From a virus (lineage: Duplodnaviria > Caudoviricetes), in IMG/VR virus record IMGVR_UViG_3300024518_001869, positions 1 through 34,304 of that record: a stretch of DNA of 34,304 bases. One strand, 5' to 3'. Of the stretch, positions 12,763 to 32,715 are shown one piece after another (positions within the stretch are counted from its first letter, which is position 1; every line of letters begins with the position of its first letter). The notes beneath the pieces were generated by a model, which searched no databases, was not told the origin of the DNA, and saw only the letters and a program-made list of their open reading frames with translations. The position numbers and the translations under genes are program-made.

Positions 12763-14185
12763 AGTATTCCTTGTCTCCGTTGTAGACGGACACGGCCGGG
12801 TTTCCCGGCATCTGTAATTCGATTTCCTGGTCGTAGATCGCCACCCCGCCGCCGAGAATCGTCAGCGTCGCTGTCGTGTCGAACAGTTTCCGGTAGTGAA
12901 TCCAACCGGTGATATCGAAAATGTTCCCCTCGGGAATGGTGATCAGGCCCGATCGCCGCGTCGCGGTAATCTCGTCCTGTCCCCCGTCGAGCCCGCCTGC
13001 CCCGTCGAAGACGAAGATGTTCCCCGTGCTGTCCCCGAAATAGACCACGTCATTCGACGATACCGGATCGACCAGCGCCATGACCGTCGTGGGCGAGAAG
13101 TCCACGTCATGCTCCGTCGTCCACTTCGACCATGGGGACAAGCCCTGCGCCGCCGGGTCGGACAGCATCGGCTTATACATGACGTAGACCGCGTCCTGCG
13201 TGCCTGGGAAGCAATAGACCCGCTGCAAGCGCCGGTCATATTCGATCGTCCAGCTAGACTGATCGTCAATCAGGCTGTTGATCTGGATGCTCAGGTCGTT
13301 CGATTCCACGTCGCCGAAGTTTAGCGTGCCGCTCAGTGTCTCGATCCGCCCCGGCAAGCCCATGACCACGTCGTTGCCGATGTTCTTCATGGCTTCCGCG
13401 CCGACAACGGCGGACCCTACATGAAACTCGTTGATGTCGAAGTCGAAGGCGTTCGCGCCGGCCAGGATGTAGAGGCGGCCGCGCTCGGTCGAAATCAGAA
13501 ATTGCCCGAAAGCGGCTTCCAGGCCGTTGATCGGTCTCAGGTCAGGCACGATGATAAAGAAAGCCGCGCTCAGTCCCAGGCTGGAGGACGGGCGATTGGC
13601 GTTGGATAGCTGCTCGGAATCACCGACCTCTGACCCCAGCACGACATGAGGCGTGTCCGTCGTGGTCTTGATATTGGCGAAGAACGCGCGCTCACGATGG
13701 ACCCGGCAATACTTGGCGAAGAAATTGGACCCAAGGTTGTGCGCGAAGTCCTCGAACGTGGTCCCGTCCCACTTCTTGACGACGGTGTTCTTCTCCAGGT
13801 CCGTGACAATCACGATTTCGTCGAGCGTGAAGTTGTGTTCGCGCGGCCCGCGCAGCTTGGTCCCCGCCGCGACCGTGCCCACGGACGTGAATGTCGTGGT
13901 TCCGTCCCATTCGTAGACTTCCGTCCCGGCCTGGATCAGCGTCGAGACAGTGCCGTCCTGCTTTATGAGCTGGGCATAACCGTTGATTGCTCCCGCGTTG
14001 GGCGCAGTGGCGACCAAGTCGAAGGGCTTCCGGCGCTTAAAAGCATGGTACTGCGCGTCGAGATCGAAATTGAGGCTGGCATCCACACACTCGGAATGGT
14101 GAACGTCCGCGGTTCTTCGTCGTGCATTGAGCCCTCCGCCGAAGGTGAGGACGATAGGACCTTCATTACGCGCCACGGCGGACAC
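12593..14185 (-). CDS. Tail nozzle/DNA-stabilisation protein (P22 gp10 / T7 gp12-like)
   Basis: 530 aa, beta-propeller-like composition, N-terminal FGGGLN, directly after the adaptor gene. Confidence 0.7.
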   Translation of the reverse strand: MSAVARNEGPIVLTFGGGLNARRRTADVHHSECVDASLNFDLDAQYHAFKRRKPFDLVATAPNAGAINGYAQLIKQDGTVSTLIQAGTEVYEWDGTTTFTSVGTVAAGTKLRGPREHNFTLDEIVIVTDLEKNTVVKKWDGTTFEDFAHNLGSNFFAKYCRVHRERAFFANIKTTTDTPHVVLGSEVGDSEQLSNANRPSSSLGLSAAFFIIVPDLRPINGLEAAFGQFLISTERGRLYILAGANAFDFDINEFHVGSAVVGAEAMKNIGNDVVMGLPGRIETLSGTLNFGDVESNDLSIQINSLIDDQSSWTIEYDRRLQRVYCFPGTQDAVYVMYKPMLSDPAAQGLSPWSKWTTEHDVDFSPTTVMALVDPVSSNDVVYFGDSTGNIFVFDGAGGLDGGQDEITATRRSGLITIPEGNIFDITGWIHYRKLFDTTATLTILGGGVAIYDQEIELQMPGNPAVSVYNGDKEYYGDADTLYGSTFSTRIYRQDWGAAGHSSHIQVEVSVTSGNEWDIQEVGIEFRTSPT

Positions 14186-14906
14186 CCCACCGCTTACTTG
14201 CGGTCTGGCGCGTTGCCGTCTGGACCGCGCGGATCAAGCTGGACTGGAACAGCGAGGAATCAAATTCCTTCTTCATGACCCGCGTCCAGCCCTCCGCGCA
14301 GACAGGCACGAACGCGTCCGCGACCGTGTCCGAGAACGGTAGTGTCTGCGTCGCCATCGTAGACGTGAGCTGTAGCCGCTTGTGGTACAGGTACTCGTAA
14401 GAGATACCGTCCTCGTCGCTGGTCGGGTAGCTGTCCAGGACCACGTTGCCGCTGATCGGGGAAATCACGAACGCGTCCGGCTCGCCGGTATAGTCCGTCG
14501 CGATAGGCCTTTCCGCGAACAGCTTGTCGTAACCGCCCTTGTACTCCCGCAGGATGCGCCCGTTGGTCACGCCGCGGATAATCATCGTGCGCTCGTCGTC
14601 GCCCGCCATGCGCTCGAAATCGGACGGGACCGTGTATTCGTTGGTGTCCGTCACAAGGTTCATGGTCGCGGTATTCACGCCGCTGGCCAGCATGCCGAGA
14701 TTGTAGAGGACGTGCGTCGCCTCGTTCCACATCATGATCATCAAGTCGATCTGGACCTGACGCCCGGAATCCACGAACGCCCCCGTCGCGGTCAGGCCCG
14801 TCGCGGTGGACGTGACCGTGGACGTGGCAAGCTCACCCGCGTCACCTTGAATGACACGCACGCGCTTCAGGCTGGCATTGATTGCCGCAAGGAATGTGAT
14901 CGCCAT
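14166..14906 (-). CDS. Head-to-tail adaptor protein
   Basis: 246 aa; TFLAAINASLKR N-terminal helix and EYTVPSDF ... GEPDAF ... YPT pattern; directly precedes the nozzle. Confidence 0.65.
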   Translation of the reverse strand: MAITFLAAINASLKRVRVIQGDAGELATSTVTSTATGLTATGAFVDSGRQVQIDLMIMMWNEATHVLYNLGMLASGVNTATMNLVTDTNEYTVPSDFERMAGDDERTMIIRGVTNGRILREYKGGYDKLFAERPIATDYTGEPDAFVISPISGNVVLDSYPTSDEDGISYEYLYHKRLQLTSTMATQTLPFSDTVADAFVPVCAEGWTRVMKKEFDSSLFQSSLIRAVQTATRQTASKRWGVRRGA

Positions 14907-15477: not shown

Positions 15478-16517
15478 TATGCAAGCTCGGCACCCGCCTC
15501 ATGCGCGTTGTAGCCCGACACGGTCCACTGCGTCATCGTGTCTGGGTCGGTCTCGTAGGTCTCGTAAAGGCCCGTGTAGACGCCCGATGTCATGACCTGT
15601 GCCGAGCCCGTGCCCAGTGTCCCATTCGAGTTGTTCAGGAGCTTCAACTGGCTTGAGCCGCCCGCCGTGCGCTTGACCGCCGCGCCGACCTGCATCCCGA
15701 GAACCGTCTTGCGGGTCGTTGGCAGAGAGCCCATCCCCACGAGGAATTGGTTGCCCACCGTGCCGGTCTCCAGATAGGTCGTGTCGTCGTCGATTACCGG
15801 GTCGTCAATCTCGACATAATCGTCGCCGCCGTTGAGCGGGGTCCATTGCCGGACGCTGCCGTTAGCGTTGGGGAGCGTGGCGTCAACCTGCGCCTCCACG
15901 GTCAGAACCGTGTTGTTGGTCGAGCCATTCGTGTCGAAGACGAAGAAATCATCGATCTTGCACTGCCGCACGTCCCGCACGATCTGGAAGTCATTGAAGA
16001 ACGCGGACCCGCCGTTTTGCGTGTCGGCGCCTGTGAGATTGATAATCTGTGCGCCGTTCAGATACATATTCACGTACCCGGTCGTGTCATTGACCTTGGC
16101 TTCGATCCCGAAGAAATTCCAGTTCTGCAAGGTCAGAACGCTGTTGGCCGATGTTGCCAAGGTCGTGCCGTCGCCGTTCTTGACCACGATCCCATTCAGG
16201 GAATTACGTTCGATGATAATGTGCGTCGTGAAGCCTGACCCCGTGTTATGGCGGCAGTTGAACAGCACCGCGTTGTCCGCCAGGGCGCTGTCAACGTAGA
16301 AGCCAAGGTGCGGGCAAAGTGTATCCTGCTCGGCTGGCGACGTATAACTAAGCAGGCCAGCGGAGCCCAAGTGGCAACACATGACCCCCGTCCGGAACTC
16401 ATCGTCGTCCACGGTGGCGACGCTTGAATTATTGAACCCGTTCGCCGCGTTCCAGGTATCAAGCGCAGTGCCATCCGGAACCACGTAGTCCCACGAGCGT
16501 GCAATCAATAACGTCAT
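15477..16517 (-). CDS. Putative virion protein with LamG/ConA-like beta-sandwich domain
   Basis: 346 aa, Asn/Thr/Gly-rich; WNFFGIEAKV ... YVNMYLNG ... KIDDFFVFD fits a LamG-type pattern. Confidence 0.55.
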   Translation of the reverse strand: MTLLIARSWDYVVPDGTALDTWNAANGFNNSSVATVDDDEFRTGVMCCHLGSAGLLSYTSPAEQDTLCPHLGFYVDSALADNAVLFNCRHNTGSGFTTHIIIERNSLNGIVVKNGDGTTLATSANSVLTLQNWNFFGIEAKVNDTTGYVNMYLNGAQIINLTGADTQNGGSAFFNDFQIVRDVRQCKIDDFFVFDTNGSTNNTVLTVEAQVDATLPNANGSVRQWTPLNGGDDYVEIDDPVIDDDTTYLETGTVGNQFLVGMGSLPTTRKTVLGMQVGAAVKRTAGGSSQLKLLNNSNGTLGTGSAQVMTSGVYTGLYETYETDPDTMTQWTVSGYNAHEAGAELA

Positions 16518-18106
16518 TTTCTACCCCATCCTCTACGTGGTCCGACCCATTTGCGCCTGTGCGAATAACCAAGCCCGCCACCGCCCGTGAACGGCGCGAA
16601 GAATTGCCTGTAAAGCGCCACGATCGACGCGACGCCGACCGCGACAGCCGCCATCGTCACGAGGTTCAAGACCCCCGTGGCCGACGCAATCCCCGGAATA
16701 CACACGGCGGTCACTGACAAGAGTACGAAAAACGTGGCTTTTCTACCAAGTCCGGCGACGCCCGTGGCTGTAGCCGCCAATGTCCGGAACGCCTTCAAGC
16801 GCGTGGATATGCTCGCCACGCCGATCGCAGTGGCCGCTAGGGCTTGTTGGACAACCGCCGTCAGTTTGGTAGCGGTCATGCCCGCAACGCCCGTGGCGGT
16901 CGCTACGAGAGCCCGGAATGCCGTCAGCATCGTGTTGATCGTCGCGCTGCCCGTAGCCGTGGCCGCGAGCGTGCGGAAGAAACTGGACTCAGTCGCAATA
17001 CTAGCCACGCCGACCGCGGTAGCCGCGAGAGCCTGTATCGTGGCACTGATCTTGTCCGCGATTAGCGTCGCACTGCCCACGGCGGTCGCCGCAAGCGTGC
17101 GGAATGCCTTTAAACGCGCGGATAGGCTCGGCGACCCGGTCGCGGTCGCGTCCATGTCCTGTTGCGTGAATGGGCGATTGATCGCGATTGTTGCGGAACC
17201 TGCGGCGGTCGCGCTCAGGTCACGGAACGCGGATAGCGCCGTCGCGATGTCAGGCACGCCGATTGCGGTAGCCGACAGTGCTTGAAGTGTCGCGCCGGAC
17301 ACATCCGGGATGATAATTGTTTGCCGGGGAATGGGCCGATAGATTTCCCATCGCGTCCCAACATCTACAACGCGCCTGATATCCCCCGCTGTCAGACAGT
17401 GGTCATAAACCCGCATGTCAAAAATTTGGCCGTCGAATGGGTTGTTGGCGCCTTCCGACGAACCGATTACCGTGCTATTCGTCTGACTTCCAAAGGCATT
17501 TGCCGCTGAATGACTTTCGAGGATGCCGTCGCGATAGAAGGTGTAATTCCCAACGGTGCCGCGCGCGCCGCCGTTGAAGCTGATTGCGATATGATGGGTT
17601 TGACCTAAATCGCTGTCCTGCCAAGCCCCGTCCGATTGCATTTCCGGCATGTTGCTGGAGCCACGAGAGCCAAAGGCGAATGGTTCGAGCCCCGCGACGG
17701 CCGTTGTAAACATCGCGCGGATCGGCTCGCCGCCGTTATTCGTGGTCTGAAATTTAAACGGCGCTGGGTATGCGTCCGGCGAATAATCATCCAGCCGGTA
17801 CCAGAACGCCACTGTCCAGTCCGACGCCGCGTCCAGAATGAAGCCATTACTCAGATGATCCCCGGAATTGGCGCCAAACTCCCACACGTTGGCACCGAAA
17901 ACGGACGGGGCCATCCTCTGGTCGTCCGTAGACCCGACAATCGTGTTGTGGTGGCCGTACCCGCTAATGTCAAAAAGATGGTTTGAGCCAAACAATGGCC
18001 AACACGCGGTAAGGTGCTCGACATGCCGTTTCGTGCGGTCAAGCGTGACCGGCCCCTTCGGAAGAGAAAGCCAGTCCGGGCGCCTTGGGATAAGGATTTG
18101 GGCCAT
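16514..18106 (-). CDS. Head-fibre-like protein: N-terminal LamG/ConA-like lectin domain plus about 11 ATA(T/V/I)G repeats
   Basis: DISGYGHH, WTVAFWY, HHIAISFNG, FYRDG and FDGQIFDMRVYDHCLT are LamG3-like motifs; the C-terminal half is repetitive. Confidence 0.8.
   Translation of the reverse strand: MAQILIPRRPDWLSLPKGPVTLDRTKRHVEHLTACWPLFGSNHLFDISGYGHHNTIVGSTDDQRMAPSVFGANVWEFGANSGDHLSNGFILDAASDWTVAFWYRLDDYSPDAYPAPFKFQTTNNGGEPIRAMFTTAVAGLEPFAFGSRGSSNMPEMQSDGAWQDSDLGQTHHIAISFNGGARGTVGNYTFYRDGILESHSAANAFGSQTNSTVIGSSEGANNPFDGQIFDMRVYDHCLTAGDIRRVVDVGTRWEIYRPIPRQTIIIPDVSGATLQALSATAIGVPDIATALSAFRDLSATAAGSATIAINRPFTQQDMDATATGSPSLSARLKAFRTLAATAVGSATLIADKISATIQALAATAVGVASIATESSFFRTLAATATGSATINTMLTAFRALVATATGVAGMTATKLTAVVQQALAATAIGVASISTRLKAFRTLAATATGVAGLGRKATFFVLLSVTAVCIPGIASATGVLNLVTMAAVAVGVASIVALYRQFFAPFTGGGGLGYSHRRKWVGPRRGWGRK
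16620..17290 (-). repeat. Degenerate tandem coding repeat, about 20-23 aa per unit, about 11 units
   Basis: LSATAIGVP, LSATAAGSA, MDATATGSP, LAATAVGSA, LAATAVGVA, LAATATGSA, LVATATGVA, LAATAIGVA, LAATATGVA, LSVTAVCIP, MAAVAVGVA. Boundaries are approximate. Confidence 0.85.
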
Positions 18107-19102: not shown

Positions 19103-19562
19103 CTGTCGTCTCCGCTAGTATTTTCAGCATATCATCGATGGTCGCGCCGCCAGCAACCTTGACGCCCCGCTTCGAGCACAGCTTTCGCAACGCGATCAGC
19201 GGATTCTGCGCGGCTTGTTCCTGCCGTTGAGCTTTTGCCAGCTCTCCCGGCGTCGGGATGGCTTCGAGTTCTTCCGGCAACGGAGGAAGTGGCTCCTGAT
19301 CGCTGTTGCGCTGGGCACGGCGGAACGCACCACGATTGATAGGCTCCTTATCCAGGACCCCCGCTTGCTGGGCATTGATCAGCGCGGGGAGGATATGGGG
19401 CTTGGGTGCATCCCGGTCGATCGGGATTTCATAGGCGTCGGCCAGATCAACGAGCTGGCGGCGGCGTAGCGACGTTAGAGGCGTGACCGCTATCGGCATT
19501 TGCCCCGGTAGTGTCGGGCCTTGTACTCCCGACTCCGGGAAACTGTCCGTGAAGTTTGCCAT
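19020..19562 (-). CDS. Hypothetical protein with two helix-extended-helix (Rho-N/LEM/SAP-like) motifs
   Basis: LTSLRRRQLVDLADAYEIPI...ILPAL and LIALRKLCSKRGVKV...DDMLKIL; AAGGA SD. Confidence 0.55.
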   Translation of the reverse strand: MANFTDSFPESGVQGPTLPGQMPIAVTPLTSLRRRQLVDLADAYEIPIDRDAPKPHILPALINAQQAGVLDKEPINRGAFRRAQRNSDQEPLPPLPEELEAIPTPGELAKAQRQEQAAQNPLIALRKLCSKRGVKVAGGATIDDMLKILAETTGESSDSAADSEAGSSGQTEGRHEIPAP

Positions 19563-20532
19563 TTGCTTGTCCTTGTCCGCTTGAATCTTCGGGATTGTAC
19601 GAATCGGTGTTGATCGGTGGCATCGGGAAGCCGGGCGGTGTCGATGGCCCTTCTTTCTTGAACTTCTCCGCTTCCTCCGGGGTCACGTACTGGAACGTGT
19701 CGCCGTCCTGGAGCTTGACAACGGGCTGCTCCTTGTAGCCGTACACGCCGCCGTCCTTGATCGAGTCCACAAGGCTCGTGCCGTGGCTCAATTCGACCTC
19801 CATGCCCGACAGCGATGCCATCGTGACCCACGCTTCCGTGCAAGCCCGCCCGGACTCGGCGTACTCCCGGTTTGGATAGGTGAAGTCGCAGCCGAACAGT
19901 TTCAGCTTCTTGACCCCAATATGCATCGCGTAGGCGATCGCCTGGGCCACGCCGTTGTTGAGATACGGCTTGCCAAGAACCGGCTGCGAGATTTTCGAGA
20001 CCTCGTCGATCGGGTAGTCATAGGACAGGGGGATAACGTCCGGGTAAGCCTTGGACGTGATCACCGGCTTGCCACGGCGCCGCAGCAACGTGAATAGGCC
20101 GGGCTTGAATGTCTCTTGGTCGTGAAGATCGTCCATCCAGAACACGACATCGTGCCAGATCAGGTTCGCCGCCATGTTGATCGCCCAGATTTCATCGGCG
20201 AAGTCCGGCGACGCTTCCTGGGTCAGGACCTTGTTGAACAGGTCCGCCACGGAAGGCCCCATGCCGCACAGAGCGACGGTCTTGGGCGCGTGGTCGAGAT
20301 ACCGGCGTACCGTGCCGTCCTCTTGCTGGACTAGCTTCTCGCGGGGCCTGCGGGCCGCGTGAGCGGCTAATGCTTCCTGCCGGTAGGCTTCCGCCTGCTT
20401 GCCGATTTCCTCGCCAGCGTCTTCCAGCGCGTGGGCGTACTCGATCAGCTTGGCTTTGGTGGCTTTGGTAAGGTCGGGACGGTCTAGGTGGCCGTCGCTA
20501 TCGTCGCGCCGCTGTTCTGAATCATTCGCCAT
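19447..20532 (-). CDS. Putative nonulosonic-acid transferase (CstII/GT42, GT29, Maf-like fold)
   Basis: KTVALCGMGPS ... EIWAIN ... DVVFWMD ... NNGVAQAIAYAMHIGVKKLKLFGCDF follows the order of the CstII/Maf motifs (GNGPS ... N ... SG/A-rich helix-LGxKEIYLxGxDF). Confidence 0.65.
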   Translation of the reverse strand: MANDSEQRRDDSDGHLDRPDLTKATKAKLIEYAHALEDAGEEIGKQAEAYRQEALAAHAARRPREKLVQQEDGTVRRYLDHAPKTVALCGMGPSVADLFNKVLTQEASPDFADEIWAINMAANLIWHDVVFWMDDLHDQETFKPGLFTLLRRRGKPVITSKAYPDVIPLSYDYPIDEVSKISQPVLGKPYLNNGVAQAIAYAMHIGVKKLKLFGCDFTYPNREYAESGRACTEAWVTMASLSGMEVELSHGTSLVDSIKDGGVYGYKEQPVVKLQDGDTFQYVTPEEAEKFKKEGPSTPPGFPMPPINTDSYNPEDSSGQGQANGKLHGQFPGVGSTRPDTTGANADSGHASNVATPPPAR

Positions 20533-20840
20533 TTTGATCCCACAAACTCCAATTTCACTAGGTCATCCGCCTGGGTGAAGACAATCTGGCCGGTGGCGGT
20601 TCCGGTCAAACTCAATGATGCTTCCCCCGTCGCGGTAACGAATATGACTTTCTGCTGGCCTTCTATGCCGTCCTCTAATGAATAAACTGTAACCCCGAAT
20701 CCAGTCGGACCCGCTCCCAGAATGTTCGCGCTTACGTCCAGGCAAATAGCCTGCGCGGTCGTCGCTGCCGTCAGTGTCTCGGTCGAGTGATAGCCCGGCC
20801 CCCGTGTGGGGACCGGGCCACCTGTAATTGCGACCGACAT
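20484..20840 (-). CDS. Thr-rich putative capsid decoration protein, paralogue 2
   Basis: 118 aa; shares ATGEAxLxxxGTATG..VF and a terminal GATxATAT with 20844..21218. Confidence 0.65.
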   Translation of the reverse strand: MSVAITGGPVPTRGPGYHSTETLTAATTAQAICLDVSANILGAGPTGFGVTVYSLEDGIEGQQKVIFVTATGEASLSLTGTATGQIVFTQADDLVKLEFVGSKWRMIQNSGATIATAT

Positions 20841-20843
20841 TCA

Positions 20844-21218
20844 TCAAGTCGCGGTTGCGAGGGTCGCACCTTGGGAGAGAGTCACGAACCAAGTCCCGGC
20901 AACCTGCTTGAGCACCACGAAATCCGTATCGGCTTGGAAAACGTGGGCACCCGTCGCGGTGCCGGAGAATTGAAGCGTGGCCTCGCCAGTCGCGCCCATC
21001 TGCACGACCTTTTCCATCAGCTCGTGCCCGTCGCCAGTCGCCAGTAGATACTGGTTCCTGAGTAACGAGCCAGTCGCCGTCCCCGCGCCAAGCGTCGTGA
21101 CTTGGTGCGTGGTGGAAATGGTCTGTTGTGCGGTCGCCGTCGATTGCGTCATAGCCTCGACGCCGTCCACGGAGTTGATCGGGCGGACTTGTGCGCCTGC
21201 CGTTGTGGTAATAGCCAT
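20844..21218 (-). CDS. Thr-rich putative capsid decoration protein, paralogue 1
   Basis: 124 aa, immediately after the capsid gene, AGGGGG SD, ends GATLATAT. Confidence 0.65.
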   Translation of the reverse strand: MAITTTAGAQVRPINSVDGVEAMTQSTATAQQTISTTHQVTTLGAGTATGSLLRNQYLLATGDGHELMEKVVQMGATGEATLQFSGTATGAHVFQADTDFVVLKQVAGTWFVTLSQGATLATAT

Positions 21219-21227
21219 GATTACCCC

Positions 21228-22313
21228 CTATGCGCTCAGAACAGAGGCGGCGTGGCGGATGCAACGGCCCCAGTTCGAGTTGAGGACAACACCGGCGTGC
21301 CACGATTTCCAGCCCATGGTCGTGACCTCGTTAAGAGGATCAGCGGAACCCGCCGAGCCCTTACCGTGGCTGATCATCTGAACGCCCGGAAGGCGATCGC
21401 CGACCACATACGACTCTTTGACGTGACGCGTACCAAGACCCACGGAACCCACGGCTTCCTTGCCGTAAATCACCGTGTTGTAGACATCGGAACGGTTTGT
21501 CGTGCCGCGCACGTCCACCGTGGCCGATCCGGTCGTGGTGTCGCCCGATCCCGTGTCGATGCTCGCTTCCGTGGTGGCAATCCAACGGACGCCGCCAACG
21601 GACCCAAACTCGCCGCGCTCGACGGCTGTCTGGCTGGAGTATTGCTCCACGGGAACAAAACCGGTCAAAGTGCGGATGTCTTCCTCGGTATCCACATGAC
21701 AGAAGCCCCAGTACGCGGACCTGATCGGCGTGGTGCCGATGTTCCGCGAGCCTTCCGTCTTCGGGAGGAACAGCATCGCATTTTGTCGGTTGAGCTGGTT
21801 TACGGTCGTCGCGATCTCGGAAAGGCCAAGACCCGCAAGGGCCACGGTCCCGCCAATATCGGTCGCCGTAGTGGCCGCGCCCGCAAGCACGGCGGTGAAG
21901 TTGTCTTCCGCGATATCTCGTTGAAGACGGTTAAGAGACTGGCCTGCGTTCATGCCGAGAATTTCGGACAATTTCGCCGCCTGACCGTTGAAGTTGATCA
22001 GATCAACCTCTTCGTTCAAGAGGATGTAATTGCCGTATTTCGCGACAGTCGCGGTCAGGTCAGTCACCGAAGGCTGCACGCCCTGCCTTGTCGGGAAGGA
22101 AATGCTGCCAGATAGCTCGGTCAGTGCGGTCGTTACGGGAGTCAGGTTTTCAATCCGACGCCACTTCGCCGTGAACGTGCCAGAATGCTCCGAAATCTCC
22201 GCGGGCTCAGTCCCAAGGTAATAGGGCGCCAGAGCCTTCGCGTTGCGAAGCAGGTTGACCTGAAACACGACGTTTACTGGACCGGCAATTTCCGTTGTGG
22301 TGGTGAGTGCCAT
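21228..22313 (-). CDS. Major capsid protein, N4-gp56 family
   Basis: 361 aa after the scaffold; KWRRIENL, AKYGNYI, GEFGSVGGVRWI and SADPLNEVTTMGWK match the N4-gp56-type pattern. Confidence 0.88.
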   Translation of the reverse strand: MALTTTTEIAGPVNVVFQVNLLRNAKALAPYYLGTEPAEISEHSGTFTAKWRRIENLTPVTTALTELSGSISFPTRQGVQPSVTDLTATVAKYGNYILLNEEVDLINFNGQAAKLSEILGMNAGQSLNRLQRDIAEDNFTAVLAGAATTATDIGGTVALAGLGLSEIATTVNQLNRQNAMLFLPKTEGSRNIGTTPIRSAYWGFCHVDTEEDIRTLTGFVPVEQYSSQTAVERGEFGSVGGVRWIATTEASIDTGSGDTTTGSATVDVRGTTNRSDVYNTVIYGKEAVGSVGLGTRHVKESYVVGDRLPGVQMISHGKGSAGSADPLNEVTTMGWKSWHAGVVLNSNWGRCIRHAASVLSA

Positions 22314-22328
22314 GTCATCGCCTGTGTG

Positions 22329-25151: not shown

Positions 25152-26593
25152 GACTGGCCTCCGACGATCGGTTTCCTTGGTCCTTTACGCTTGGGCTTGG
25201 CGGGCGGGCGGACAATGCCGTAGCGCCGCATCATGAACGCGTATCGCATCGCGGACATGATGTCGTCACGTTGCGCCACAATGACGCCATCTTTCCTGTG
25301 GTAGAGGCGCTTTTCCTCGAACCACTGGGTTAATGTGTTGAAAACCTTGAATTTGCCCGTTCGCATGTATTCGAATATTTCGATTACACCCGGCTCGCGG
25401 TGGTTGCCGCGCTCGTCGGGATAGTGGGCATGTTCCTTGAGCATCCGCAGGCCGTGACTGCGATATTGGTCTTTCAGGGCCACGCCGGACCCCTTGTCTC
25501 GATTCAGGCCGTCATGCGGCCACGCGGTCGGTATCCAATCGCCGTGCTTCCGCATGGCCTGTGCGTGGTAAACCGGAGTTTCACCGGGAGCGCGATAGCA
25601 GTCGTAGACGTAGATGGTATCCGCGTCACGATCGTGAGCAAGGAAGGCGCCCGCGGCAGGGTGGTCGATCCCAAAATCAACACCGTTAATTCGGGCGAAG
25701 TGTGGCGGTATCTCGAATGGCGGGATAGATATCGCGTCGTCGGCGATCGGAAAGACGCCACCGGAGCCCAGCATTGGCGTCCCGGATACCCTGGTTTCTC
25801 GTTCATGCGGCGGGAAAGACAGCTTGAGCCGCTCTTTCTCGTCCGGGTCCAGGTGCGGCGCGTCGTCCCATCCCACATTCGTCGAGTAAATCCCGCGACC
25901 CGCTTCGGCGTTGATAAAGTGGAGAACAACATCATCCGGACCTAGCAATGGGGTGAACGTGAGGACGATCATGCCCTTGGAATCGGCGGTGCGTGTCAGA
26001 GCCTCCGTGTAGATGTCCATCGGCGGTTCTTCATCGAGCCAAACCCAGTCCAGCTTGGCGCCCTGCCACTTCTTGCGGCCCTGTTCGTAGGTTTTCATCG
26101 AACACATCGACACGCCACCGGCCTTGTGCTTGACCTTGATCGTGTCCACGACCTCGGTCACGCCGGCTTGGCGGTATTTAACCTCGATCAAACTTTCCTT
26201 GGGTATCCAGCCGGTTCCGTGCTCGCCTTCCTTGCCCAATAGCTCGAACTGGACAAGATCGCGTGATGCCTCGCTGGACTCGGACCCGCACCAGCCGCGT
26301 GTCGCGCGGTCCCATTTGCGGCCCTTCCACCATTTCGGATAGAAGCCGGTCAGGTGGCAGGCCATTTCCGCGCCCGCGCTTCGAGTTTTCCCCACCCTGT
26401 TCGCGGCCATCAACATGCGCTCGGGGTTTTCAGCCCCGGCGTTGTGGAAGTCTATTTGCCAGTGATACGCCCCGATATTCGGATGGCCCCACGGCTTATC
26501 GTGGTCGTAGGGCTTCCCGTATTCGAGAAAGAGTTTCCTCTCTCTAGTTCGGCGTTCCAGTTCCGCTAAGGCGCGGTCTTCGGCTAATTTCAT
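25133..26593 (-). CDS. terL: Terminase large subunit (P22-like)
   Basis: Walker A MAANRVGKT, Walker B VWLDEEPP, LTFTP coupling motif, nuclease GVDFG, AWPHDG, DDIMSAMRY. Confidence 0.95.
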   Translation of the reverse strand: MKLAEDRALAELERRTRERKLFLEYGKPYDHDKPWGHPNIGAYHWQIDFHNAGAENPERMLMAANRVGKTRSAGAEMACHLTGFYPKWWKGRKWDRATRGWCGSESSEASRDLVQFELLGKEGEHGTGWIPKESLIEVKYRQAGVTEVVDTIKVKHKAGGVSMCSMKTYEQGRKKWQGAKLDWVWLDEEPPMDIYTEALTRTADSKGMIVLTFTPLLGPDDVVLHFINAEAGRGIYSTNVGWDDAPHLDPDEKERLKLSFPPHERETRVSGTPMLGSGGVFPIADDAISIPPFEIPPHFARINGVDFGIDHPAAGAFLAHDRDADTIYVYDCYRAPGETPVYHAQAMRKHGDWIPTAWPHDGLNRDKGSGVALKDQYRSHGLRMLKEHAHYPDERGNHREPGVIEIFEYMRTGKFKVFNTLTQWFEEKRLYHRKDGVIVAQRDDIMSAMRYAFMMRRYGIVRPPAKPKRKGPRKPIVGGQSWKRAS

Positions 26594-27594
26594 GCAACAT
26601 CGCGGCTATTCCGGTCCAGGAAAGTCTGGTACCAGCCCATATATTGCATCATCCCGGTCTCTAACGTGAACTTTGGCGTCCAGCCGAGCAGGTTCTCGGC
26701 TTTTTGGACACTTAGCGTGCCCCTACGCGGCTTTTCCGGATCATCCGGGAGATATAAAACCTCCGCGCCGGTCTTCTCGACGACGATGTCCGCCAACTCC
26801 TGCAACGAGCGGCCATGCCCGCCCGTGATGTTGAATGTCTCTCCGGCGGAAGTTTGGCGTTTATTTATGATCGACCTTGTGCCAGCCACCAGATCATCGA
26901 TGTAGGTGAAGTCCGACAGGATCGAGCCGTCGCCGAATATGCTGATTGACTGGCCGGCGAACGCCTGTTCCATGAACTTCTGTGTCACCCGCCCCGATAT
27001 GCAGCGCGGGCCGTACAGCGCGGACGGGCGCACGATCGTGGTGTCGATCCCGAACGTGTCCCGATACCCCGCCACCATCTGCTCGCCAGCCGCCTTCATG
27101 CGCGCGTATATCCCGATCGGATTGAGCGGCGTGGTCTCCATGACCGTGCGCCCTTCCGTGTTGCCGTACGCAGTGCTTGAGGAAAACCACACGACATGCG
27201 GTGGCTTGGGCAGGTTACGTGCCACGTCGAGCGTGTTTTGGAGGGTGATCAGGCTGTTGTCGAAAGTCCGCTTGGGGTCCTTGTTGGACCGATCGACGTG
27301 CGCGACCGCGGCCAAGTGGATGATCACGTCCGGCTCCAGCGCGAGAAGCGCGGGGCTCAACTGGTTGTAATCGGCCGCGTCGATCCGGATCACCGGGATT
27401 TCCACGACATTCAGCAAGTTAAGCCTGTGCTCCGTGATCAGCACGGAATCGGCCGGCGACGTGCGATCAGCGCGCAGGCTGTAGTAGTTGTTCACCGACA
27501 GCGAGTCGATCACGGTCACGTTGTTCTTGGCGACCATGCCGAGCGCCATGTGATGCCCGATAAAGCCCGCCCCGCCGATAATCACGATATTCAT
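26590..27594 (-). CDS. NAD-dependent nucleotide-sugar epimerase/dehydratase (extended SDR)
   Basis: GGAGFIG, IHLAA, SSSTAYG, YARMK (YxxxK), RPSALYGP, DFTYIDD. Confidence 0.92.
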   Translation of the reverse strand: MNIVIIGGAGFIGHHMALGMVAKNNVTVIDSLSVNNYYSLRADRTSPADSVLITEHRLNLLNVVEIPVIRIDAADYNQLSPALLALEPDVIIHLAAVAHVDRSNKDPKRTFDNSLITLQNTLDVARNLPKPPHVVWFSSSTAYGNTEGRTVMETTPLNPIGIYARMKAAGEQMVAGYRDTFGIDTTIVRPSALYGPRCISGRVTQKFMEQAFAGQSISIFGDGSILSDFTYIDDLVAGTRSIINKRQTSAGETFNITGGHGRSLQELADIVVEKTGAEVLYLPDDPEKPRRGTLSVQKAENLLGWTPKFTLETGMMQYMGWYQTFLDRNSRDVA

Positions 27595-28691
27595 GTCGCC
27601 TGCCTCACTGGTTCCGCCACGTCACAGGCGATCTTAAATTGCTCAATCTGGAACGCAAGCTGTTGACGCGACAGGTGCGGGCCGCACGACAGGCAGATTG
27701 TCTCACGCGAGATTTTCTCCGCGATCGGGAAATCGCCAGCGGCGTAACCCAGGTCCATGTAGTACGGCGTCAGTGGCGGGATCGGATTGTAATACACGCT
27801 CGTTTCGACCCACCGGGCGTGCATCGTGTCCCGGATCGTGTCCCGCGACATGCCCTCCGGCGCGAATACCGACATGGCATAGGCAGCGCCCGGCATGGAC
27901 TCGATCCGGCCAAAGTCCCGCAGATGGTGGCGCAGGATCGCGTGATTGCTTTCGCGGCGGTCAAGCCACAAGGATTGCTTCTTGAGTTGAGCCAGCCCCA
28001 GCGCCGCCTGCATTTCCGACATTCGGTAGTTCATGCCGATATCGACGAAATTCCCCGCCTCATCCTTGCCGAAGGCACGCAGCCGCTTGGCGCGCTCCGC
28101 AAGCCCTGGGTGCTTGGTCAGGAGCATTCCGCCCTCGCCCGTGGTCATGTGCTTCACGGGGTAGAACGAGAAGGTGCCTACGTCGCCCCACAAGCCCGCG
28201 TGACGGCTCCTGTGGCGTGCCCCTAGGGCAAGGGCGCAGTCCTCGATCACGGACAGGCTGTGCTCGCGTGCGATCTGGTTGATCCGGGCCATGTCGCACA
28301 GTCGCCCGAGATAGTGGACCGGCATGATCGCGGCCGTGCGTCTCGTCAGGGCCTTCTTGATTTCCTCCGGATCGATGTTCCCGGTCGCCGGGTCCACGTC
28401 CACGAATATCGGGTCCGCGCCCACGAGGCTGACAGCAAGCGCCGTGGCGGGGTGCGTCAGGGCCGGGACAATGACCTCGTCGCCGGGTTTGACCAGCATC
28501 AAGCACGCGATATGGAGCGCGGCCATGCACGACGTAACGGCGGTCGCCATGCCGCCCTGAGTGTATTCGGAAAACGCGGCCTCGAACTCGGTCACGCGCG
28601 GCCCGTTGGTCAGGGTGCGCTGCGCGAGCGCGGCGACGACCATGTCGCGGTCATCTCTGCCTATCAGGGGCTTGCCAAATTCAACTCTCAT
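27591..28691 (-). CDS. DegT/DnrJ/EryC1/StrS sugar aminotransferase (PseC/LegC-like)
   Basis: PGDEVIVP, AIMPVHYLG, IEDCA, FSFYPVKHMTTGEGG (PLP Lys), GMNYRMSEMQAALG. Confidence 0.93.
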   Translation of the reverse strand: MRVEFGKPLIGRDDRDMVVAALAQRTLTNGPRVTEFEAAFSEYTQGGMATAVTSCMAALHIACLMLVKPGDEVIVPALTHPATALAVSLVGADPIFVDVDPATGNIDPEEIKKALTRRTAAIMPVHYLGRLCDMARINQIAREHSLSVIEDCALALGARHRSRHAGLWGDVGTFSFYPVKHMTTGEGGMLLTKHPGLAERAKRLRAFGKDEAGNFVDIGMNYRMSEMQAALGLAQLKKQSLWLDRRESNHAILRHHLRDFGRIESMPGAAYAMSVFAPEGMSRDTIRDTMHARWVETSVYYNPIPPLTPYYMDLGYAAGDFPIAEKISRETICLSCGPHLSRQQLAFQIEQFKIACDVAEPVRQAT

Positions 28692-29151
28692 CGCCTGCCT
28701 CGCGTAGATAGGTGTTCTGAATATGGTGGAAGCCGAATTTCTTGAACAGGGCTATCGAGGCGGGATTGTTCGGATTGATATTGGCGACCCAGCCCGCACG
28801 GCGCTCGGACGGCTTGTACGGGAGCGGTTTGAAAGTCACCATCAGGACTCTCAGGGCTTTCGACGCATAGCCCTTGCGGCGGTATTTTTTCAGAATGCTG
28901 ATGCCAATCTCGTTCCGTTCCGTGACACGCAACTGGCCGACCGTGCAAGCTGCTTCCGTATCCAAGATCAGGAACCACCGCGCGAAAGGATGGTCCTCAA
29001 CGAAAGCATCATGTCGCCTCCGGCTCGGCAATTCCTTGTGGCTGATGTTCGTGTGGGCCTCGGACTCGTCCGACCGCTCTTTCAGTATTCTCCATAGGAC
29101 GTCCGCGGCGCCCGGAGAACCATGAACATCTTGTAAAATTACGTTTGACAT
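28681..29151 (-). CDS. GNAT N-acetyltransferase (PseH-like)
   Basis: EIGISILKKYRRKGYAS and NPASIALFKKFGF; start moved to ATG 29151, which has a GGAGG SD. Confidence 0.88.
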   Translation of the reverse strand: MSNVILQDVHGSPGAADVLWRILKERSDESEAHTNISHKELPSRRRHDAFVEDHPFARWFLILDTEAACTVGQLRVTERNEIGISILKKYRRKGYASKALRVLMVTFKPLPYKPSERRAGWVANINPNNPASIALFKKFGFHHIQNTYLREAGDES

Positions 29152-29702
29152 TCTGCCTCCAGTTGCGGGCGTAGCCGCTCCAGGTCTTCCGGCGTGTCCA
29201 CTGTCCACGAGTCTTTCTTCCAGAACGACGTGACGTGTTCACGGTCGTACTCGTTCATGAATGGCAGGCAGCGCAGGAACTCGTCAGTCCACACGCCCTC
29301 GGCCTGGAAGCCCGGTGTCGAGACCGCGGGAGGCGCGTACCGCACACCCCTTTCCAGCCGCTCGACAATCTGGTCGATCATCATCGCGGTTATGAACGGC
29401 GAATCCGCGCACACGCGCACGAAGGCGTCGCAGGGATAGCAGTGAATGGCCCAATCGAACCGCGCCACAACGTCCTTTTCCAGGCCCGTAACGATTTCTA
29501 CGTCCTGACGCGATGTCAAATAATGGAGAAGATCATCATTTTCCTCGGTGGCTGGAATCGCGACCACGGTCTTGTCCACGCTCGCGCCGACGATCCTGTC
29601 CAACAGGATACCGATTAGCGGCTTGCCCGCGACCTCCGCCATGACCTTACCGGGAAAGCGTGTCGAGCCCATGCGGGCCTGTACGATCGTGTTGATGATC
29701 AT
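29139..29702 (-). CDS. Cytidylyltransferase, SpsF/PseF-like CMP-nonulosonate synthetase
   Basis: IVQARMGSTRFPGKVM, VRVCADSPF, REHVT, WTVDTPED. Confidence 0.9.
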   Translation of the reverse strand: MIINTIVQARMGSTRFPGKVMAEVAGKPLIGILLDRIVGASVDKTVVAIPATEENDDLLHYLTSRQDVEIVTGLEKDVVARFDWAIHCYPCDAFVRVCADSPFITAMMIDQIVERLERGVRYAPPAVSTPGFQAEGVWTDEFLRCLPFMNEYDREHVTSFWKKDSWTVDTPEDLERLRPQLEAECQT

Positions 29703-30442
29703 GAAGTCATCTCCTGGACCGCGTCGCGGTAGTCACAAATCACCTTTAATTGGTCCGGCAATATTTCGACAGCGTGGTCCCGGCTTTTTTTGCCACGAGC
29801 GTCCCGAAAATGAACCTCGACCATCGGGCATCCGTGGCTGATCGCGTAGAGTGACGGCCAGATCGTGCCGGAGTGATCGGACAGGCCCATCTGGGTTATG
29901 CGGTGCCTATAGTCGCTCGTCAAAGCCTCTGACAAGGGCGCGGGATATTTTGCAACGCAACTCAAAAACTGACATTCGCGGCCCTTGATCAGTGGCCCGA
30001 TCTTTATCCAGTCCCCGCGCTCCATCATCCCATTCGAGACAATCAGCGGCAAGTCGGTCTCGTCGTATGGGAACGTCATCGCGGCGCGTGACGCGACCTT
30101 GGCTGCGTCGCACAGCTTGAGCAACCGCATGGCCTCGTCCTGGAAGACCGACAGGATGAAGTGGATTCCCGCGTCATGGGCGCGTCGCGAGACTCCCAGC
30201 CACCCGTCATAGCCCAGCACCGTGTCGTTCCAGTACGGCATGCGCTCATCGTCGCCTTCGACGGGGCAGAACAGCGGCGCGTCCTTGACGAACGCCTGAA
30301 ACTTGATCGCGTCCGCGCCACACTCAGCCGCGACCGTGACGAGTTCCTTGGCACGCTCCACGTCGCCGAAGTGATTCGTCCCGGCTTCCGCGATGATGTA
30401 GGTCGGGTTCCCGTTGCCTATCTCGCGCTCGCCTATAATCAT
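29699..30442 (-). CDS. neuB: NeuB-family nonulosonic acid synthase (NeuB/PseI/LegI/SpsE), short form
   Basis: YIIAEAGTNH, GADAIKFQ, KVAS, CVAKYP, GLSDHS, EVHF, RDH; 247 aa, ending before the usual C-terminal AFP/SAF domain. Confidence 0.92.
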   Translation of the reverse strand: MIIGEREIGNGNPTYIIAEAGTNHFGDVERAKELVTVAAECGADAIKFQAFVKDAPLFCPVEGDDERMPYWNDTVLGYDGWLGVSRRAHDAGIHFILSVFQDEAMRLLKLCDAAKVASRAAMTFPYDETDLPLIVSNGMMERGDWIKIGPLIKGRECQFLSCVAKYPAPLSEALTSDYRHRITQMGLSDHSGTIWPSLYAISHGCPMVEVHFRDARGKKSRDHAVEILPDQLKVICDYRDAVQEMTS

Positions 30443-30473: not shown

Positions 30474-31289
30474 TCACGGGAAACACTCCTGCCATTTGCG
30501 GAAGAACTCCGCGACTTGTCCGGGGTCGTCGAACGGGGCCTGGACGGTCCTGTATTGCTCGCTCCTGGCGGCTGTCACGACCAGCCAGTCCGAGTCGCCC
30601 CAGTAGTTCGCGTCTTCCGGCTCGAACCCGGCGAGGCGCAGGGCTGCCTTCAAGGTATTCAATGAGAAGCGGAACGAATGAAGGTCGGCCTTCTGCTTCC
30701 CGAGGTATGCCGACAGGGGCTTCTTGAATGGCACCATCAGGCGCGACCCGGTCGCGACGACGATCCTGCCGTCCGGCGTAAGGCAGTCGCGCGCACGTTC
30801 GAGCATGCCGATGCAGTCGCCGCAGTTCTCCAGGGTCCAGAGGATCGTGACCACGTCAACCTCGCTCGGGACAAACGTCTCGATCGGTCCCTTGTGGCTT
30901 GGTATCCCGGCCATGATCAGCTTCTTGACGTTCTCCTGGGCCGGCTCGACCGCGGACACCACGGCGCCACGCGACCGGATCATCTTGAGAAAGTCCCCCT
31001 CGCCCGCGCCGACGTCCAAGACGCGCTTCTTGTCCCAGCCATATTTCTGATCGAACCATTCCGCCACGAAGAACAGCCTCGCCTGCACGGCGGGCCACTT
31101 CGACGTGTAGCCTTCGCCCCAAATCCGGTCCCAGTCCGCCGCGATCGCCTCGACTGAGCGGCGCTCCTTGGCGTACACGAAACCGCACCCACCGCAGATA
31201 TGCGGGAGACCGTCCGGCTTGTAGTCGCCCGACACGGGGATAGGCGCGCTGTCCGCCGTGCCGCACAAGTCACAAACATGCGTCGTCAT
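30474..31289 (-). CDS. Class I SAM-dependent methyltransferase with N-terminal Cys motif
   Basis: CDLC ... CGGC, VLDVGAGEG, AVEP, LTPDGRIVV; start 31289 by ATGA overlap. Confidence 0.88.
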   Translation of the reverse strand: MTTHVCDLCGTADSAPIPVSGDYKPDGLPHICGGCGFVYAKERRSVEAIAADWDRIWGEGYTSKWPAVQARLFFVAEWFDQKYGWDKKRVLDVGAGEGDFLKMIRSRGAVVSAVEPAQENVKKLIMAGIPSHKGPIETFVPSEVDVVTILWTLENCGDCIGMLERARDCLTPDGRIVVATGSRLMVPFKKPLSAYLGKQKADLHSFRFSLNTLKAALRLAGFEPEDANYWGDSDWLVVTAARSEQYRTVQAPFDDPGQVAEFFRKWQECFP

Positions 31290-32410
31290 TCGGCCCAACC
31301 CTTCCTGTCATGTGCGTCCTCGTTCCAATGCGCGTCTATCACCTGGTCAAGCTGGCCACGCGTCATGTCGAGATATTCAAGAACCTTGTGAATGAATTGC
31401 GCCGGGAGCTCATGGTCGTATTCCAGCGCGAGCTTCATGCCTTGGTCCCTAGTCATGTGCCCGCCTTGTATTAGCCGACTAGCCATCCGCGTGGCGCGGC
31501 CAAAACCAAACTTGACCCACATGAGATAGAAGTCCAGGCCGTCGATCATGTCATCGATCGAGTCGAAGCCCTCGAATGATCCATTGGACTTGCCCCACCA
31601 GCGGACGCCCCAGTGGTTTTGCCAGTCAACAAGCCGGGGGTAATCCGCCACCCGGCCGCGCTCCTGTTGGAAGCCCATCTGCTTGCGCGCGTCCTTGGCA
31701 TTGCGGTAGATATCCCAGTCGAAGAAATACGACCAGTAGTATGCTTTTATTTCGCCTGCGTCTCCCGGATAAATATACGGCGCCAAGTCTCGTTCCGAGA
31801 TGTCGTCGTCCGCCCAGTTCAGCGGATGGTCCCCAACCTGATTTTCAAGCACTTCATCCAGGTTCCGGGTACGGCGCGACTCGTCATCCAGCACGAGCCC
31901 GCCGTAGAAGGACTCACCGTGCTCGGCGTAGAAGACTGTCTTGATCCCGTATGCCTTGGCAACTTGTAGCGGGACACTGTTGACCCCTGCATCATAGTGC
32001 TGCTTGGGGTGCCCACGCTCGATCGTAAATCGTCTAGCAAGAGCGCGACTGACACGCTGATCCACACGATGGTAATGAATATCGAAACCGCTATTACAAA
32101 CAGCATCGAGATTATGACGGCCCACATCAGTCCATAGCATCTGACCATAGCAGACCAGAAGCGGGTTAAGCCCGAAATCATGTTTCAGCCTCCATGCGAT
32201 CATCGCGGAATCCTTGCCGCCAGAAAACGGCACGACACAGTCATAAGGCGCGCTGCCAACAAACCCCGCGATCAGGTTCTTGAACTCGCGCTCGCGCACG
32301 ACCCAGTCAATATTCTTCCTCGCGTCAGCCTCCAGGCACGCATTGCAGCGACCGTCCGTGAACACGACGCGCGGGCGCGTGTCCGGCATGAGACATGTCT
32401 TGCAGATCAT
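31286..32410 (-). CDS. N-acetyl sugar amidotransferase (PseA/WbuX/PtmG family)
   Basis: CKTCLMPDTRP ... CNAC, YDCVVPFSGGKDS (PP-loop), KFGFGRAT; start 32410 by ATGA overlap. Confidence 0.92.
   Translation of the reverse strand: MICKTCLMPDTRPRVVFTDGRCNACLEADARKNIDWVVREREFKNLIAGFVGSAPYDCVVPFSGGKDSAMIAWRLKHDFGLNPLLVCYGQMLWTDVGRHNLDAVCNSGFDIHYHRVDQRVSRALARRFTIERGHPKQHYDAGVNSVPLQVAKAYGIKTVFYAEHGESFYGGLVLDDESRRTRNLDEVLENQVGDHPLNWADDDISERDLAPYIYPGDAGEIKAYYWSYFFDWDIYRNAKDARKQMGFQQERGRVADYPRLVDWQNHWGVRWWGKSNGSFEGFDSIDDMIDGLDFYLMWVKFGFGRATRMASRLIQGGHMTRDQGMKLALEYDHELPAQFIHKVLEYLDMTRGQLDQVIDAHWNEDAHDRKGWAE
31819..32181 (-). CDS. Putative overprinted membrane protein nested out of frame in the amidotransferase gene
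   Basis: GGAGG 7 nt before ATG 32181; 32 consecutive uncharged, mostly hydrophobic residues (18-49); host-frame codons over this stretch are strongly T-ending. Confidence 0.55.
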   Translation of the reverse strand: MISGLTRFWSAMVRCYGLMWAVIISMLFVIAVSIFITIVWISVSVALLLDDLRSSVGTPSSTMMQGSTVSRYKLPRHTGSRQSSTPSTVSPSTAGSCWMTSRAVPGTWMKCLKIRLGTIR

Positions 32411-32715
32411 TGTACAGCTCTCCAAACCGCCGCCTGACGGCCGCTTTTGTTTCTGCGGCGCACGCCCGTGTCCTCGATATACCCAGCGGCGTGCAACTCC
32501 GAGACACGTGGGCGAATCGACAGCACTGAAAAACCAAGCACGGACGAAATCTCATCGGCGGTCCTAGTGTGGCCCGCGCGGTAATAGTCGAGCACCAAAC
32601 GGCGAAGCGTTTCCGCCTTTGGGGCAATCGCCTCCGCAGCCACAACAGATGTCTCCGGCGCCTCGGTCTTGTGTCCAGGGAACAGAGGGTACGTCTCGCC
32701 AGGGTCCATCGTCAT
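32407..32715 (-). CDS. Winged helix-turn-helix DNA-binding protein
   Basis: TADEISSVLGFSVLSIRPRVSELHAAGYIEDTG...SGRQAAVW; AAGGA SD. Confidence 0.75.
   Translation of the reverse strand: MTMDPGETYPLFPGHKTEAPETSVVAAEAIAPKAETLRRLVLDYYRAGHTRTADEISSVLGFSVLSIRPRVSELHAAGYIEDTGVRRRNKSGRQAAVWRAVQ

Follow-up and report, generated by a model that had tools for sequence, protein, structure and literature searches.

The question raised by this locus is what a gene of a phage head module, missed by standard annotation, has to do with a sugar pathway encoded some distance away. The DNA analysed (34,304 nucleotides, called the window throughout) is the whole linear record IMGVR_UViG_3300024518_001869 of a virus of the Caudoviricetes (Duplodnaviria), about 57% complete; the gene lies on its minus strand at 19447-20532 and encodes a protein of 361 amino acids. 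An earlier note, made from the sequence alone, had proposed that this protein is a transferase of CMP-linked sugars with a fold like that of CstII and Maf, and that it acts on the virion. The protein is best read as a stripped-down, mostly viral CMP-nonulosonate:protein O-transferase, and it is probable that this enzyme coats virion proteins directly with a sugar of the CMP-nonulosonate type.

The gene and its family

All of the motifs on which the earlier note relied are present in the open reading frame (ORF): VALCGMGPS at residues 86-94, IWAIN at 115-119, VVFWMD at 129-134, GVAQ...FGCDF at 194-217 and, nearer the N-terminus, DLTKATKAKLIEYAHAL at 20-36. Homologues are numerous (227 at E≤1e-3, among 6,023 candidates) and in their alignments the invariant columns of the family fall inside the quoted motifs; ORF 19447-20532 is therefore a real gene. 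A profile search with the family returned 1,351 representatives at 50% clustering. The three atlas clusters nearest by features (scores 0.88, at the level of a lead only) are 96-100% viral; a scan of bacterial genomes for the family gave no matches and an archaeal scan gave three, on short contigs of metagenome-assembled genomes. The protein belongs to a real, unannotated and mostly viral family, whose fold is predicted to be that of Cst, Maf and MptE.

It had been expected that standard annotation would miss the gene, and this was borne out: there was no match in Pfam (E≤0.01), PHROGs (E≤0.001) or NCBIfam (E≤0.001), the sole Pfam trace being to PF01973 (E 0.08, 13.1 bits against a curated cut-off of 34.6). 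The window protein also had no match among 50,697 GenBank phage records. Two distant members of the family match a single GenBank record, that of Microcystis phage Mvi-Yong1342-1; a third member that was tried gave no match. In this cultured phage XAN61349.1 (PP496355.1, L195:11653-12456), which is labelled 'type 11 methyltransferase' and lies directly before terS, is a distant family member (hhalign 98.5%, 22% identity; hidden Markov model E 1.5e-20).

Predicted fold and conserved residues

An AlphaFold2 model was made from alignment A1, the best 120 of the 227 homologues (the close homologues below). The model (pLDDT 83, pTM 0.71) has a confident core and a low-confidence tail beyond residue 295. 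In Foldseek it matched CstII at ranks 1-9 and Cst-I at rank 10 (best E 2.4e-5), with MptE at rank 12 and Maf at rank 23. An exhaustive VIA search gave a four-way tie between MptE (Z 11.5), Cst-I (11.2), SteA (10.9) and Maf (10.8), with thiamine pyrophosphokinase (TPK; 2OMK, Z 8.4) and ST8SiaIII (Z 8.0) lower; a second run gave the same picture. The Cst-I superposition, at the top of the GT42 range of Z 9.5-11.2, aligns 163 residues with a root-mean-square deviation of 3.4; that on Maf (5MU5) aligns 171 at 3.9, and that on MptE (8SD5), the top match at Z 11.5-11.6, aligns 146 at 2.8. The CstII/Maf fold claimed in the earlier note is thus supported by both programs, but MptE and SteA, which it did not mention, score equally well. 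GT29, which it had named beside GT42 and Maf, scores lower (Z 6.8-8.0), and no Pfam cut-off of these three families is passed.

Since this fold is common to transferases, pyrophosphokinases and one regulator, it cannot by itself fix the function. It is the gene context (the sugar pathway, the NeuA-NeuB cassettes and the linkage to capsid and spike genes) that favours a transferase over the other functions of the fold. A diphosphokinase of the MptE/TPK kind, or a factor of head assembly that binds nucleotides in the manner of SteA and has no catalytic activity, would fit the VIA scores, the weak PF01973 matches seen in 12 of 147 distant and 13 of 120 close homologues, and the absence of NeuB from most carriers of the gene. 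However, Foldseek places Cst above MptE, PF01973 is also the Maf_flag10 family according to bioRxiv 2020.06.03.131540, and the gene sits inside NeuA-NeuB cassettes in two distinct lineages (see below). Further, no genes of the pterin, folate or thiamine pathways were found among the window ORFs or 138 scanned neighbours. We consider a kinase or a SteA-like factor unlikely.

When profiles of diverse members were run against PDB sequences at E≤10, Cst-I and CstII alone were matched, weakly (E 0.04 with alignment A2, E 0.3 with A5); the same search with the single sequence or with A1 gave nothing relevant. A hand-picked alignment, A4, reached CstII at E 3e-6. It is made up of the members with PF01973 matches and two outliers, one of them the second Cst-like gene described below, and it was not counted as independent support; A5, which gave only the weak value above, was chosen without that selection. 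A match of residues 10-82 to an EF-hand protein (E 0.004) was judged to be due to chance, the region not being conserved.

Residues conserved at 90% or more over 125 diverse core domains are G92, S94, W116, N119, D128, M133, D134, P174, Y190, G214, D216, E226, G228 and the YGY of 264-266; in the model a helix (222-241) starts five residues after D216. Two acids, E324 and D415, and a conserved Ser are required in Maf; in the C. botulinum enzyme the intervals between them are 62 and 23 residues (bioRxiv 2020.06.03.131540). The 361-residue protein has intervals of 60 and 22 between D134, position 194 and D216, a match to the Maf residues by spacing only.

The helix predicted at residues 26-60 had been thought a possible means of targeting the enzyme to procapsids. 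This is unsupported: only P0001 and P0002 share the helix, it is absent from 118 of the 120 close homologues, and most of these begin 15-35 residues ahead of the GPS motif. As a targeting device of the whole family the helix was rejected, since it is not conserved.

The sugar pathway and the predicted donor

Family matches place eight sugar genes directly upstream of the terminase gene, on the same strand (Table 1). Along the minus strand the order is WbuZ/HisF-like gene, small ORF, WbuX, methyltransferase, NeuB, cytidylyltransferase, GNAT, DegT aminotransferase, dehydratase and terL; from terL on it is portal-like, scaffold-like, N4-gp56-type capsid, two small Thr-rich paralogues, the studied gene, fibre, adaptor, tail genes and endolysin, where the labels 'portal-like' and 'scaffold-like' come from a PHROG head-tail adaptor match and from position. 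That the sugar cluster lies about 6 kb from the gene, and the gene among virion genes, had been noted before and is correct; the distance is 6,058 bp (20532 to 26590) and the gene stands between the major capsid gene and the adaptor and tail genes. Among the sugar-pathway enzymes WbuX alone passes its NCBIfam cut-off, and neither PseG nor a WbuY glutaminase was seen in the window in the NCBIfam scan.

NeuB is present in 9, and a CTP_transf_3 gene in 8, of 34 viral records with the studied gene. Two control sets were used. The first comprised 30 loci collected by the window's capsid gene, 7 of them already counted; of its 23 new loci, 3 carry the studied gene and 1, which is one of those 3, carries NeuB. 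The second comprised 45 loci collected by HK97- and SU10-type capsid genes, from which 10 were omitted as repeats or near-identical gene-positives; the studied gene is present in 1 of the 35 tested and NeuB in none. When these are pooled, 10 of 38 records with the gene have NeuB, as compared with 0 of 54 capsid-matched records that lack the gene (Fisher p 7e-5, an overstated value, as the records are fragmentary and related, some are duplicates, including one other assembly of the window's phage, and the N4-like negatives belong mostly to a single clade). On a quick tree of the enzyme the carriers with NeuB are found at three positions. The 'NEUB' labels that L094 and L073 bear on this tree had been assigned by hand on the strength of other sugar genes; NeuB was not seen in either locus and they were not counted.

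The arrangement of genes in two other phages tells more than this count. In L028, whose head is of the HK97 type, the genes run portal, protease, cytidylyltransferase, unknown, NeuB, homologue of the studied gene, capsid. In L058 a cassette upstream of terL holds a PseF-like gene, NeuB, a second Cst-like gene, a methyltransferase, a spike homologue and the homologue of the studied gene. The CMP-nonulosonate donor suggested in the earlier note is thus supported by gene context, namely the co-occurrence of NeuB and the NeuA-NeuB cassettes of these two phages.

The enzyme might instead add sugar to sugar, as CstII does, capping a glycan that another host or phage enzyme has placed on virion proteins and not acting on Thr itself. 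The sequence profile is closest to Cst-I and CstII, not to Maf, and other candidate transferases accompany the family here and there: the second Cst-like gene in L058 and an Anp1-like glycosyltransferase in L026. Against this, no other glycosyltransferase was found in the window (a record only about 57% complete), and the lid region of CstII, with its catalytic His188, has no counterpart here. A capping enzyme seems to us improbable.

The same sugar cluster was seen in G003, G004, G006 and G009, some of which have an extra Gfo/Idh/MocA oxidoreductase; in L150 (G009:15000-25352) and L009:4184-5670 several HNH-endonuclease-like ORFs interrupt the cluster, and terL is split into two ORFs. Beside NeuB, L028:4950-5636 and L013:3-1478 hold a gene with an HIPKxGG motif, which we associate with sulfotransferases; it has no Pfam match at 1e-4 and may tailor the sugar. 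The second, different Cst-like gene (L058:3241-3858) has weak matches to CstII only, and its relatives (L155:8196, L163:1554) follow a head-tail adaptor in HK97-type phages without the studied family.

Head-module position and candidate acceptors

At each of the 24 loci measured, a major capsid gene lies no more than 5.5 kb from the start of the gene, and these loci have heads of the N4-gp56, HK97, SU10 and Phage_capsid_4 types. The gene also has a close companion. This is a gene for a small spike-like protein, of the family to which the two Thr-rich paralogues of the window belong: it lies no more than 1.5 kb upstream in 33 of the 35 close homologues for which the sequence extends far enough, as compared with 1 of 25 distant homologues (L058) and 0 of 20 capsid-matched loci without the gene. 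The model of this protein (pLDDT 80) is a beta-sandwich, matched in VIA by Solidus gp83 (Z 10.7), CBA120 TSP4 (Z 8.7), a baseplate protein (Z 8.4) and a Pseudomonas phage capsid spike (Z 6.8), with a best Foldseek E of 1.5e-3. Because these are tailspike domains, a baseplate protein and a capsid spike, it is predicted to be an outer particle protein. The virion acceptor proposed in the earlier note is supported by capsid proximity, the four head types and the linked spike-like gene; the two proteins of 20484-21218, which it had named in particular, travel with the gene and have a predicted spike or tailspike fold, and they are candidates for this role.

A CMP-nonulosonate transferase might instead act on the host surface (lipopolysaccharide, capsule, pilin or flagellin), blocking other phages or converting the serotype. 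CstII itself acts on lipo-oligosaccharide. One related locus (L011) has an integrase, and prophage genes that alter pseudaminic acid capsules of the host are documented in the abstract of PMC12053666. However, the gene is embedded in four types of head module and moves with the spike-like gene (L058), and the window showed no gene for a membrane flippase or polymerase; a host-surface acceptor is unlikely. Glycosylation of phage DNA or of a modified base, as an escape from restriction, is much less probable still. Such glycosylation does exist in phages, and 21 of the 147 distant homologues (P0121-P0267; e.g. L010:6831, L026:9359) are fused to a class I methyltransferase, but the gene belongs to the late head module rather than to the replication genes, it is tied to the spike-like protein, and no base-modification genes were seen in the window.

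A homologue of the downstream ORF (19020-19562) directly follows the capsid gene in L054 and L055, which suggests that the spike genes and the transferase gene are an insert between the capsid gene and this ORF. In L063:9989-11310 and L064 the major capsid gene itself is split into parts of 118 and 219 amino acids around an insert, possibly an intron. In SU10-type phages, with or without the studied gene, the second gene after the capsid gene encodes an Anp1-like glycosyltransferase (PF03452; L026:5465-6223, L172-L175).

Thr-Ala-Thr as a candidate sequon

In the alignment of the spike-like family the tripeptide Thr-Ala-Thr (TAT) is repeated at several conserved places. Over the virion module of the window (23 genes assigned by position) TAT occurs 27 times, against a shuffle mean of 6.4 (maximum 14 in 1,000), and ranks 1 of 3,456 tripeptides; in the 16 other window genes, a weak control, it occurs 0 times with a shuffle mean of 1.1. 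Over 10 loci of the window's clade it again ranks first, of 6,925 tripeptides (169 vs 47), and in 9 gene-negative relatives it ranks 238; per 1,000 amino acids there are 3.3 copies in the clade, as against 0.9 in either control set. The motif is concentrated in the genes for spike, adaptor, capsid and fibre, with few copies in those for enzymes, terminase, portal and scaffold. Adaptor orthologues contain it in 9 of 9 gene-positive phages vs 2 of 10 gene-negative ones. In most carriers two indel-prone loops of the capsid protein contain TAT or SAT, both of which are missing from these loops in the main gene-negative clade (L056, L060 and L062, being fragments, may or may not carry the gene); we infer that these loops face outward.

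Simpler sources of the signal were rejected. A DNA repeat does not account for it, as 15 different codon triplets encode the 27 sites, nor does a general bias towards Thr-x-Thr in strands, TAT being 3.6x enriched where most other TxT are at 1.6x or less and TFT is at 2.1x. The Ser-Thr dipeptide was also tried as a sequon and is not enriched (1.06x, rank 101 of 400).

Beyond the clade, the counts speak against TAT as a signal for the enzyme. In 21 distant gene-positive loci it is 1.76x over composition, where controls are at 1.65-1.86x; it reaches 3x in 7 of 30 control loci; and L055, a carrier, has no excess. A sequon of the whole family was therefore rejected, the distant carriers being at background, and a pool of L031, L129 and L131 was discarded with it because it had been picked after the counts were seen. 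Suggestive cases outside the clade are the L058 spike homologue with 4 TAT, L028 (11 vs 2.8) and Mvi-Yong1342-1 (13 vs 4.2). The TAT signal is that of one clade plus these suggestive cases, and direct coating of the virion by the 361-residue enzyme through a TAT sequon is put forward tentatively, from sequence counts, as a possibility that may well fail. The LamG fibre-like protein (16514-18106) has imperfect C-terminal repeats around ATATG/ATAVG units.

Proposed mechanism and its significance

We propose that the pathway would yield, late in infection, a CMP-linked sugar of the Pse/Leg type with amidino and methyl tailoring. The core of the enzyme is predicted to bind this CMP-sugar through GPS 92-94, N119 and GCDF(T)Y 214-219, with D134, D216 or E226 as catalytic acids. 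It would act in the cytoplasm directly on Thr or Ser, as Maf does on flagellin, and its likely acceptors would be the two upstream spike-like proteins, the capsid loops, the adaptor and the LamG fibre, probably at TAT. More speculatively, an anionic coat could make the particle more stable, hide it from proteases or decoy receptors, or adjust its adsorption. A host donor would be needed in the carriers that have no NeuB, which would draw on host CMP-nonulosonate or CMP-Kdo; Maf accepts CMP-Kdo and CMP-Neu5Ac (bioRxiv 2020.06.03.131540).

Several observations weigh against this proposal. MptE and SteA tie with the transferases in VIA (Z 11.5-11.6 and 10.9). No His is conserved, none exceeding 50% across the 125 diverse members. 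By spacing only, the Ser that Maf needs would correspond to position 194. The 361-residue protein and 108 of 120 close homologues have Gly there, whereas 73 of 86 diverse members have Thr or Ser. NeuB is absent from 28 of the 38 gene-positive records, including the complete G026 and G027 and two with terminal repeats, and the nine NeuB-less carriers tested also have no epimerase; L054 and L055 carry the gene with neither NeuB nor the spike gene.

To our knowledge, among tailed phages only mycobacteriophages are known to have glycosylated virions. A search of the literature (listings and the beginnings of abstracts, with subscription journals largely outside it) brought up no phage reported to synthesise a nonulosonate and attach it to its virion. 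If the proposal is true, widespread, virus-specific, minimal enzymes of the Cst/Maf fold would give tailed phages a sialic-acid-like coat from their own pathway, and phage sugar clusters now filed as auxiliary metabolic or host-conversion genes would, at least here, belong to the assembly of the particle. With 1,351 clusters at 50% identity the family is large; its nearest atlas clusters are 96-100% viral, and it is invisible to standard annotation. In the window's clade the phage would have written a linear TAT sequon into its capsid loops, spikes, adaptor and fibres, making nonulosonate O-glycosylation programmable by sequence, unlike in the flagellin systems; an enzyme of 220 residues that reads a short linear sequon would offer a simple means of site-directed sialylation. 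Taken as one claim, a widespread virus-specific family of coat builders with a TAT-reading enzyme in the window's clade is possible but rather doubtful.

Other features of the window and related loci

The features are collected in Table 1. A scan for promoters and terminators gave results at chance level. In L008:11885-13033 an ORF like an ART-PolyVal ADP-ribosyltransferase, just under the cut-off, lies between the adaptor and tail genes.

Table 1. Positions of the gene under study, its parts, the candidate acceptors and the sugar-pathway genes in the window
Feature	Position	Strand	Basis or remark
Predicted CMP-nonulosonate transferase, 361 aa	19447..20532	minus	gene under study
Conserved CstII/Maf/MptE-fold core, residues 74-295	19648..20313	minus	model and conservation; conserved core residues listed: G92, S94, W116, N119, D134, D135, G214, D216, Y219, E226, R229, E233, YGY 264-266
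N-terminal extension, predicted helix 26-60	20314..20532	minus	model and alignment; seen in one other homologue only
Pro/Gly-rich low-confidence C-terminal tail	19450..19647	minus	116-nt overlap with next gene, 19020-19562
Thr-rich beta-sandwich protein 1, predicted spike/decoration	20844..21218	minus	4 TAT motifs; candidate acceptor
Paralogue of protein 1 (40% identical)	20484..20840	minus	3 TAT motifs; candidate acceptor
N4-gp56-family major capsid protein	21228..22313	minus	two variable loops with TAT/SAT; candidate acceptor
Laminin-G fibre-like protein	16514..18106	minus	5 TAT in C-terminal repeats; candidate acceptor
SU10-like adaptor	14166..14906	minus	weak Pfam match; 4 TAT; candidate acceptor
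NAD-dependent nucleotide-sugar dehydratase/epimerase	26590..27594	minus	family match
DegT-family aminotransferase	27591..28691	minus	best NCBIfam PseC, below cut-off
GNAT acetyltransferase	28681..29208	minus	family match
CTP_transf_3 cytidylyltransferase (makes CMP-activated keto-acid sugars)	29139..29702	minus	family match
NeuB-family nonulosonate synthase, 247 aa, no SAF domain match	29699..30442	minus	family match
Class I SAM methyltransferase	30474..31298	minus	family match
WbuX N-acetyl-sugar amidotransferase	31286..32425	minus	TIGR03573, 258 bits, cut-off 203
WbuZ/HisF-like amidation partner	32743..33480	minus	below cut-off

Comparison with known systems

Two phage systems are related in outline. 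In mycobacteriophage Che8 a phage-encoded glycosyltransferase O-glycosylates the capsid protein (Freeman et al. 2023, cited in PMC13445384); in the present case, as compared with that description, the sugar pathway is phage-encoded as well, a CMP-nonulosonate is the predicted donor and the predicted enzyme has a Cst/Maf fold. The Acinetobacter prophage genes epaA and epaB epimerise a sugar of the host capsule and have in common with the window that phage genes act on nonulosonic acids, although the abstract of PMC12053666 mentions neither a transferase nor a virion link. Among enzymes, the archaeal pyrophosphokinase MptE (8SD5), SteA (9HMY) and TPK have the same core fold (Z 8.4-11.6), TPK being aligned over its N-terminal part only, and with four family profiles neither solved MptE nor solved TPK was listed at E≤10; GT29 has the lower likeness given above and there was no PF00777 match.

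GT42 (CstII and Cst-I of Campylobacter jejuni; PF06002; PDB 1RO7, 2P56) provides the best Foldseek and the best sequence-profile match of the 361-residue protein. Its single Rossmann-like, GT-A-variant fold is present in the predicted model, and the motifs GxGPS and Y...A.A..G...L.G.DF align with CstII, the former only as a sub-threshold piece; from their role in CstII we take GxGPS and GxDFY of the 361-residue protein to be CMP-binding. CstII transfers to sugars of lipo-oligosaccharide and uses a lid region; the studied family differs in having neither a conserved His nor a lid region, identity is 12-16%, and PF06002 (CST-I) was not matched at E≤0.1 in 120 close members or at E≤0.01 in 147 distant ones.

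With Maf (PF01973; M. magneticum, PDB 5MU5) the model has in common the CstII-like central domain, to which the spacing of D134 and D216 may add counterparts of E324 and D415, and the gene has in common the linkage to a nonulosonate synthase and a cytidylyltransferase (PF03102 and PF02348 in the window). Cytoplasmic O-glycosylation of Ser/Thr in a self-assembling surface structure is likely to be common to both; Maf transfers CMP-Neu5Ac and CMP-Kdo to Ser/Thr (bioRxiv 2020.06.03.131540). The differences are of size, 361 against 632 amino acids with a match that covers only Maf residues 255-498; of sequence, a Ser required there being Gly here by spacing, and the best PF01973 score among the 147 distant homologues being 20.1 bits, below the cut-off of 34.6; and of setting, the studied family being mostly viral and no flagellin family being matched among the 41 window ORFs. 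Flagellin acceptors, moreover, have no known consensus according to PMC7591256, whereas the window's clade has TAT as a candidate sequon; it is this lack of a flagellin consensus that makes a linear sequon, so far a candidate only, of interest. By the tests that define the two families the 361-residue protein is a member of neither GT42 nor Maf; most likely, it works like Maf.

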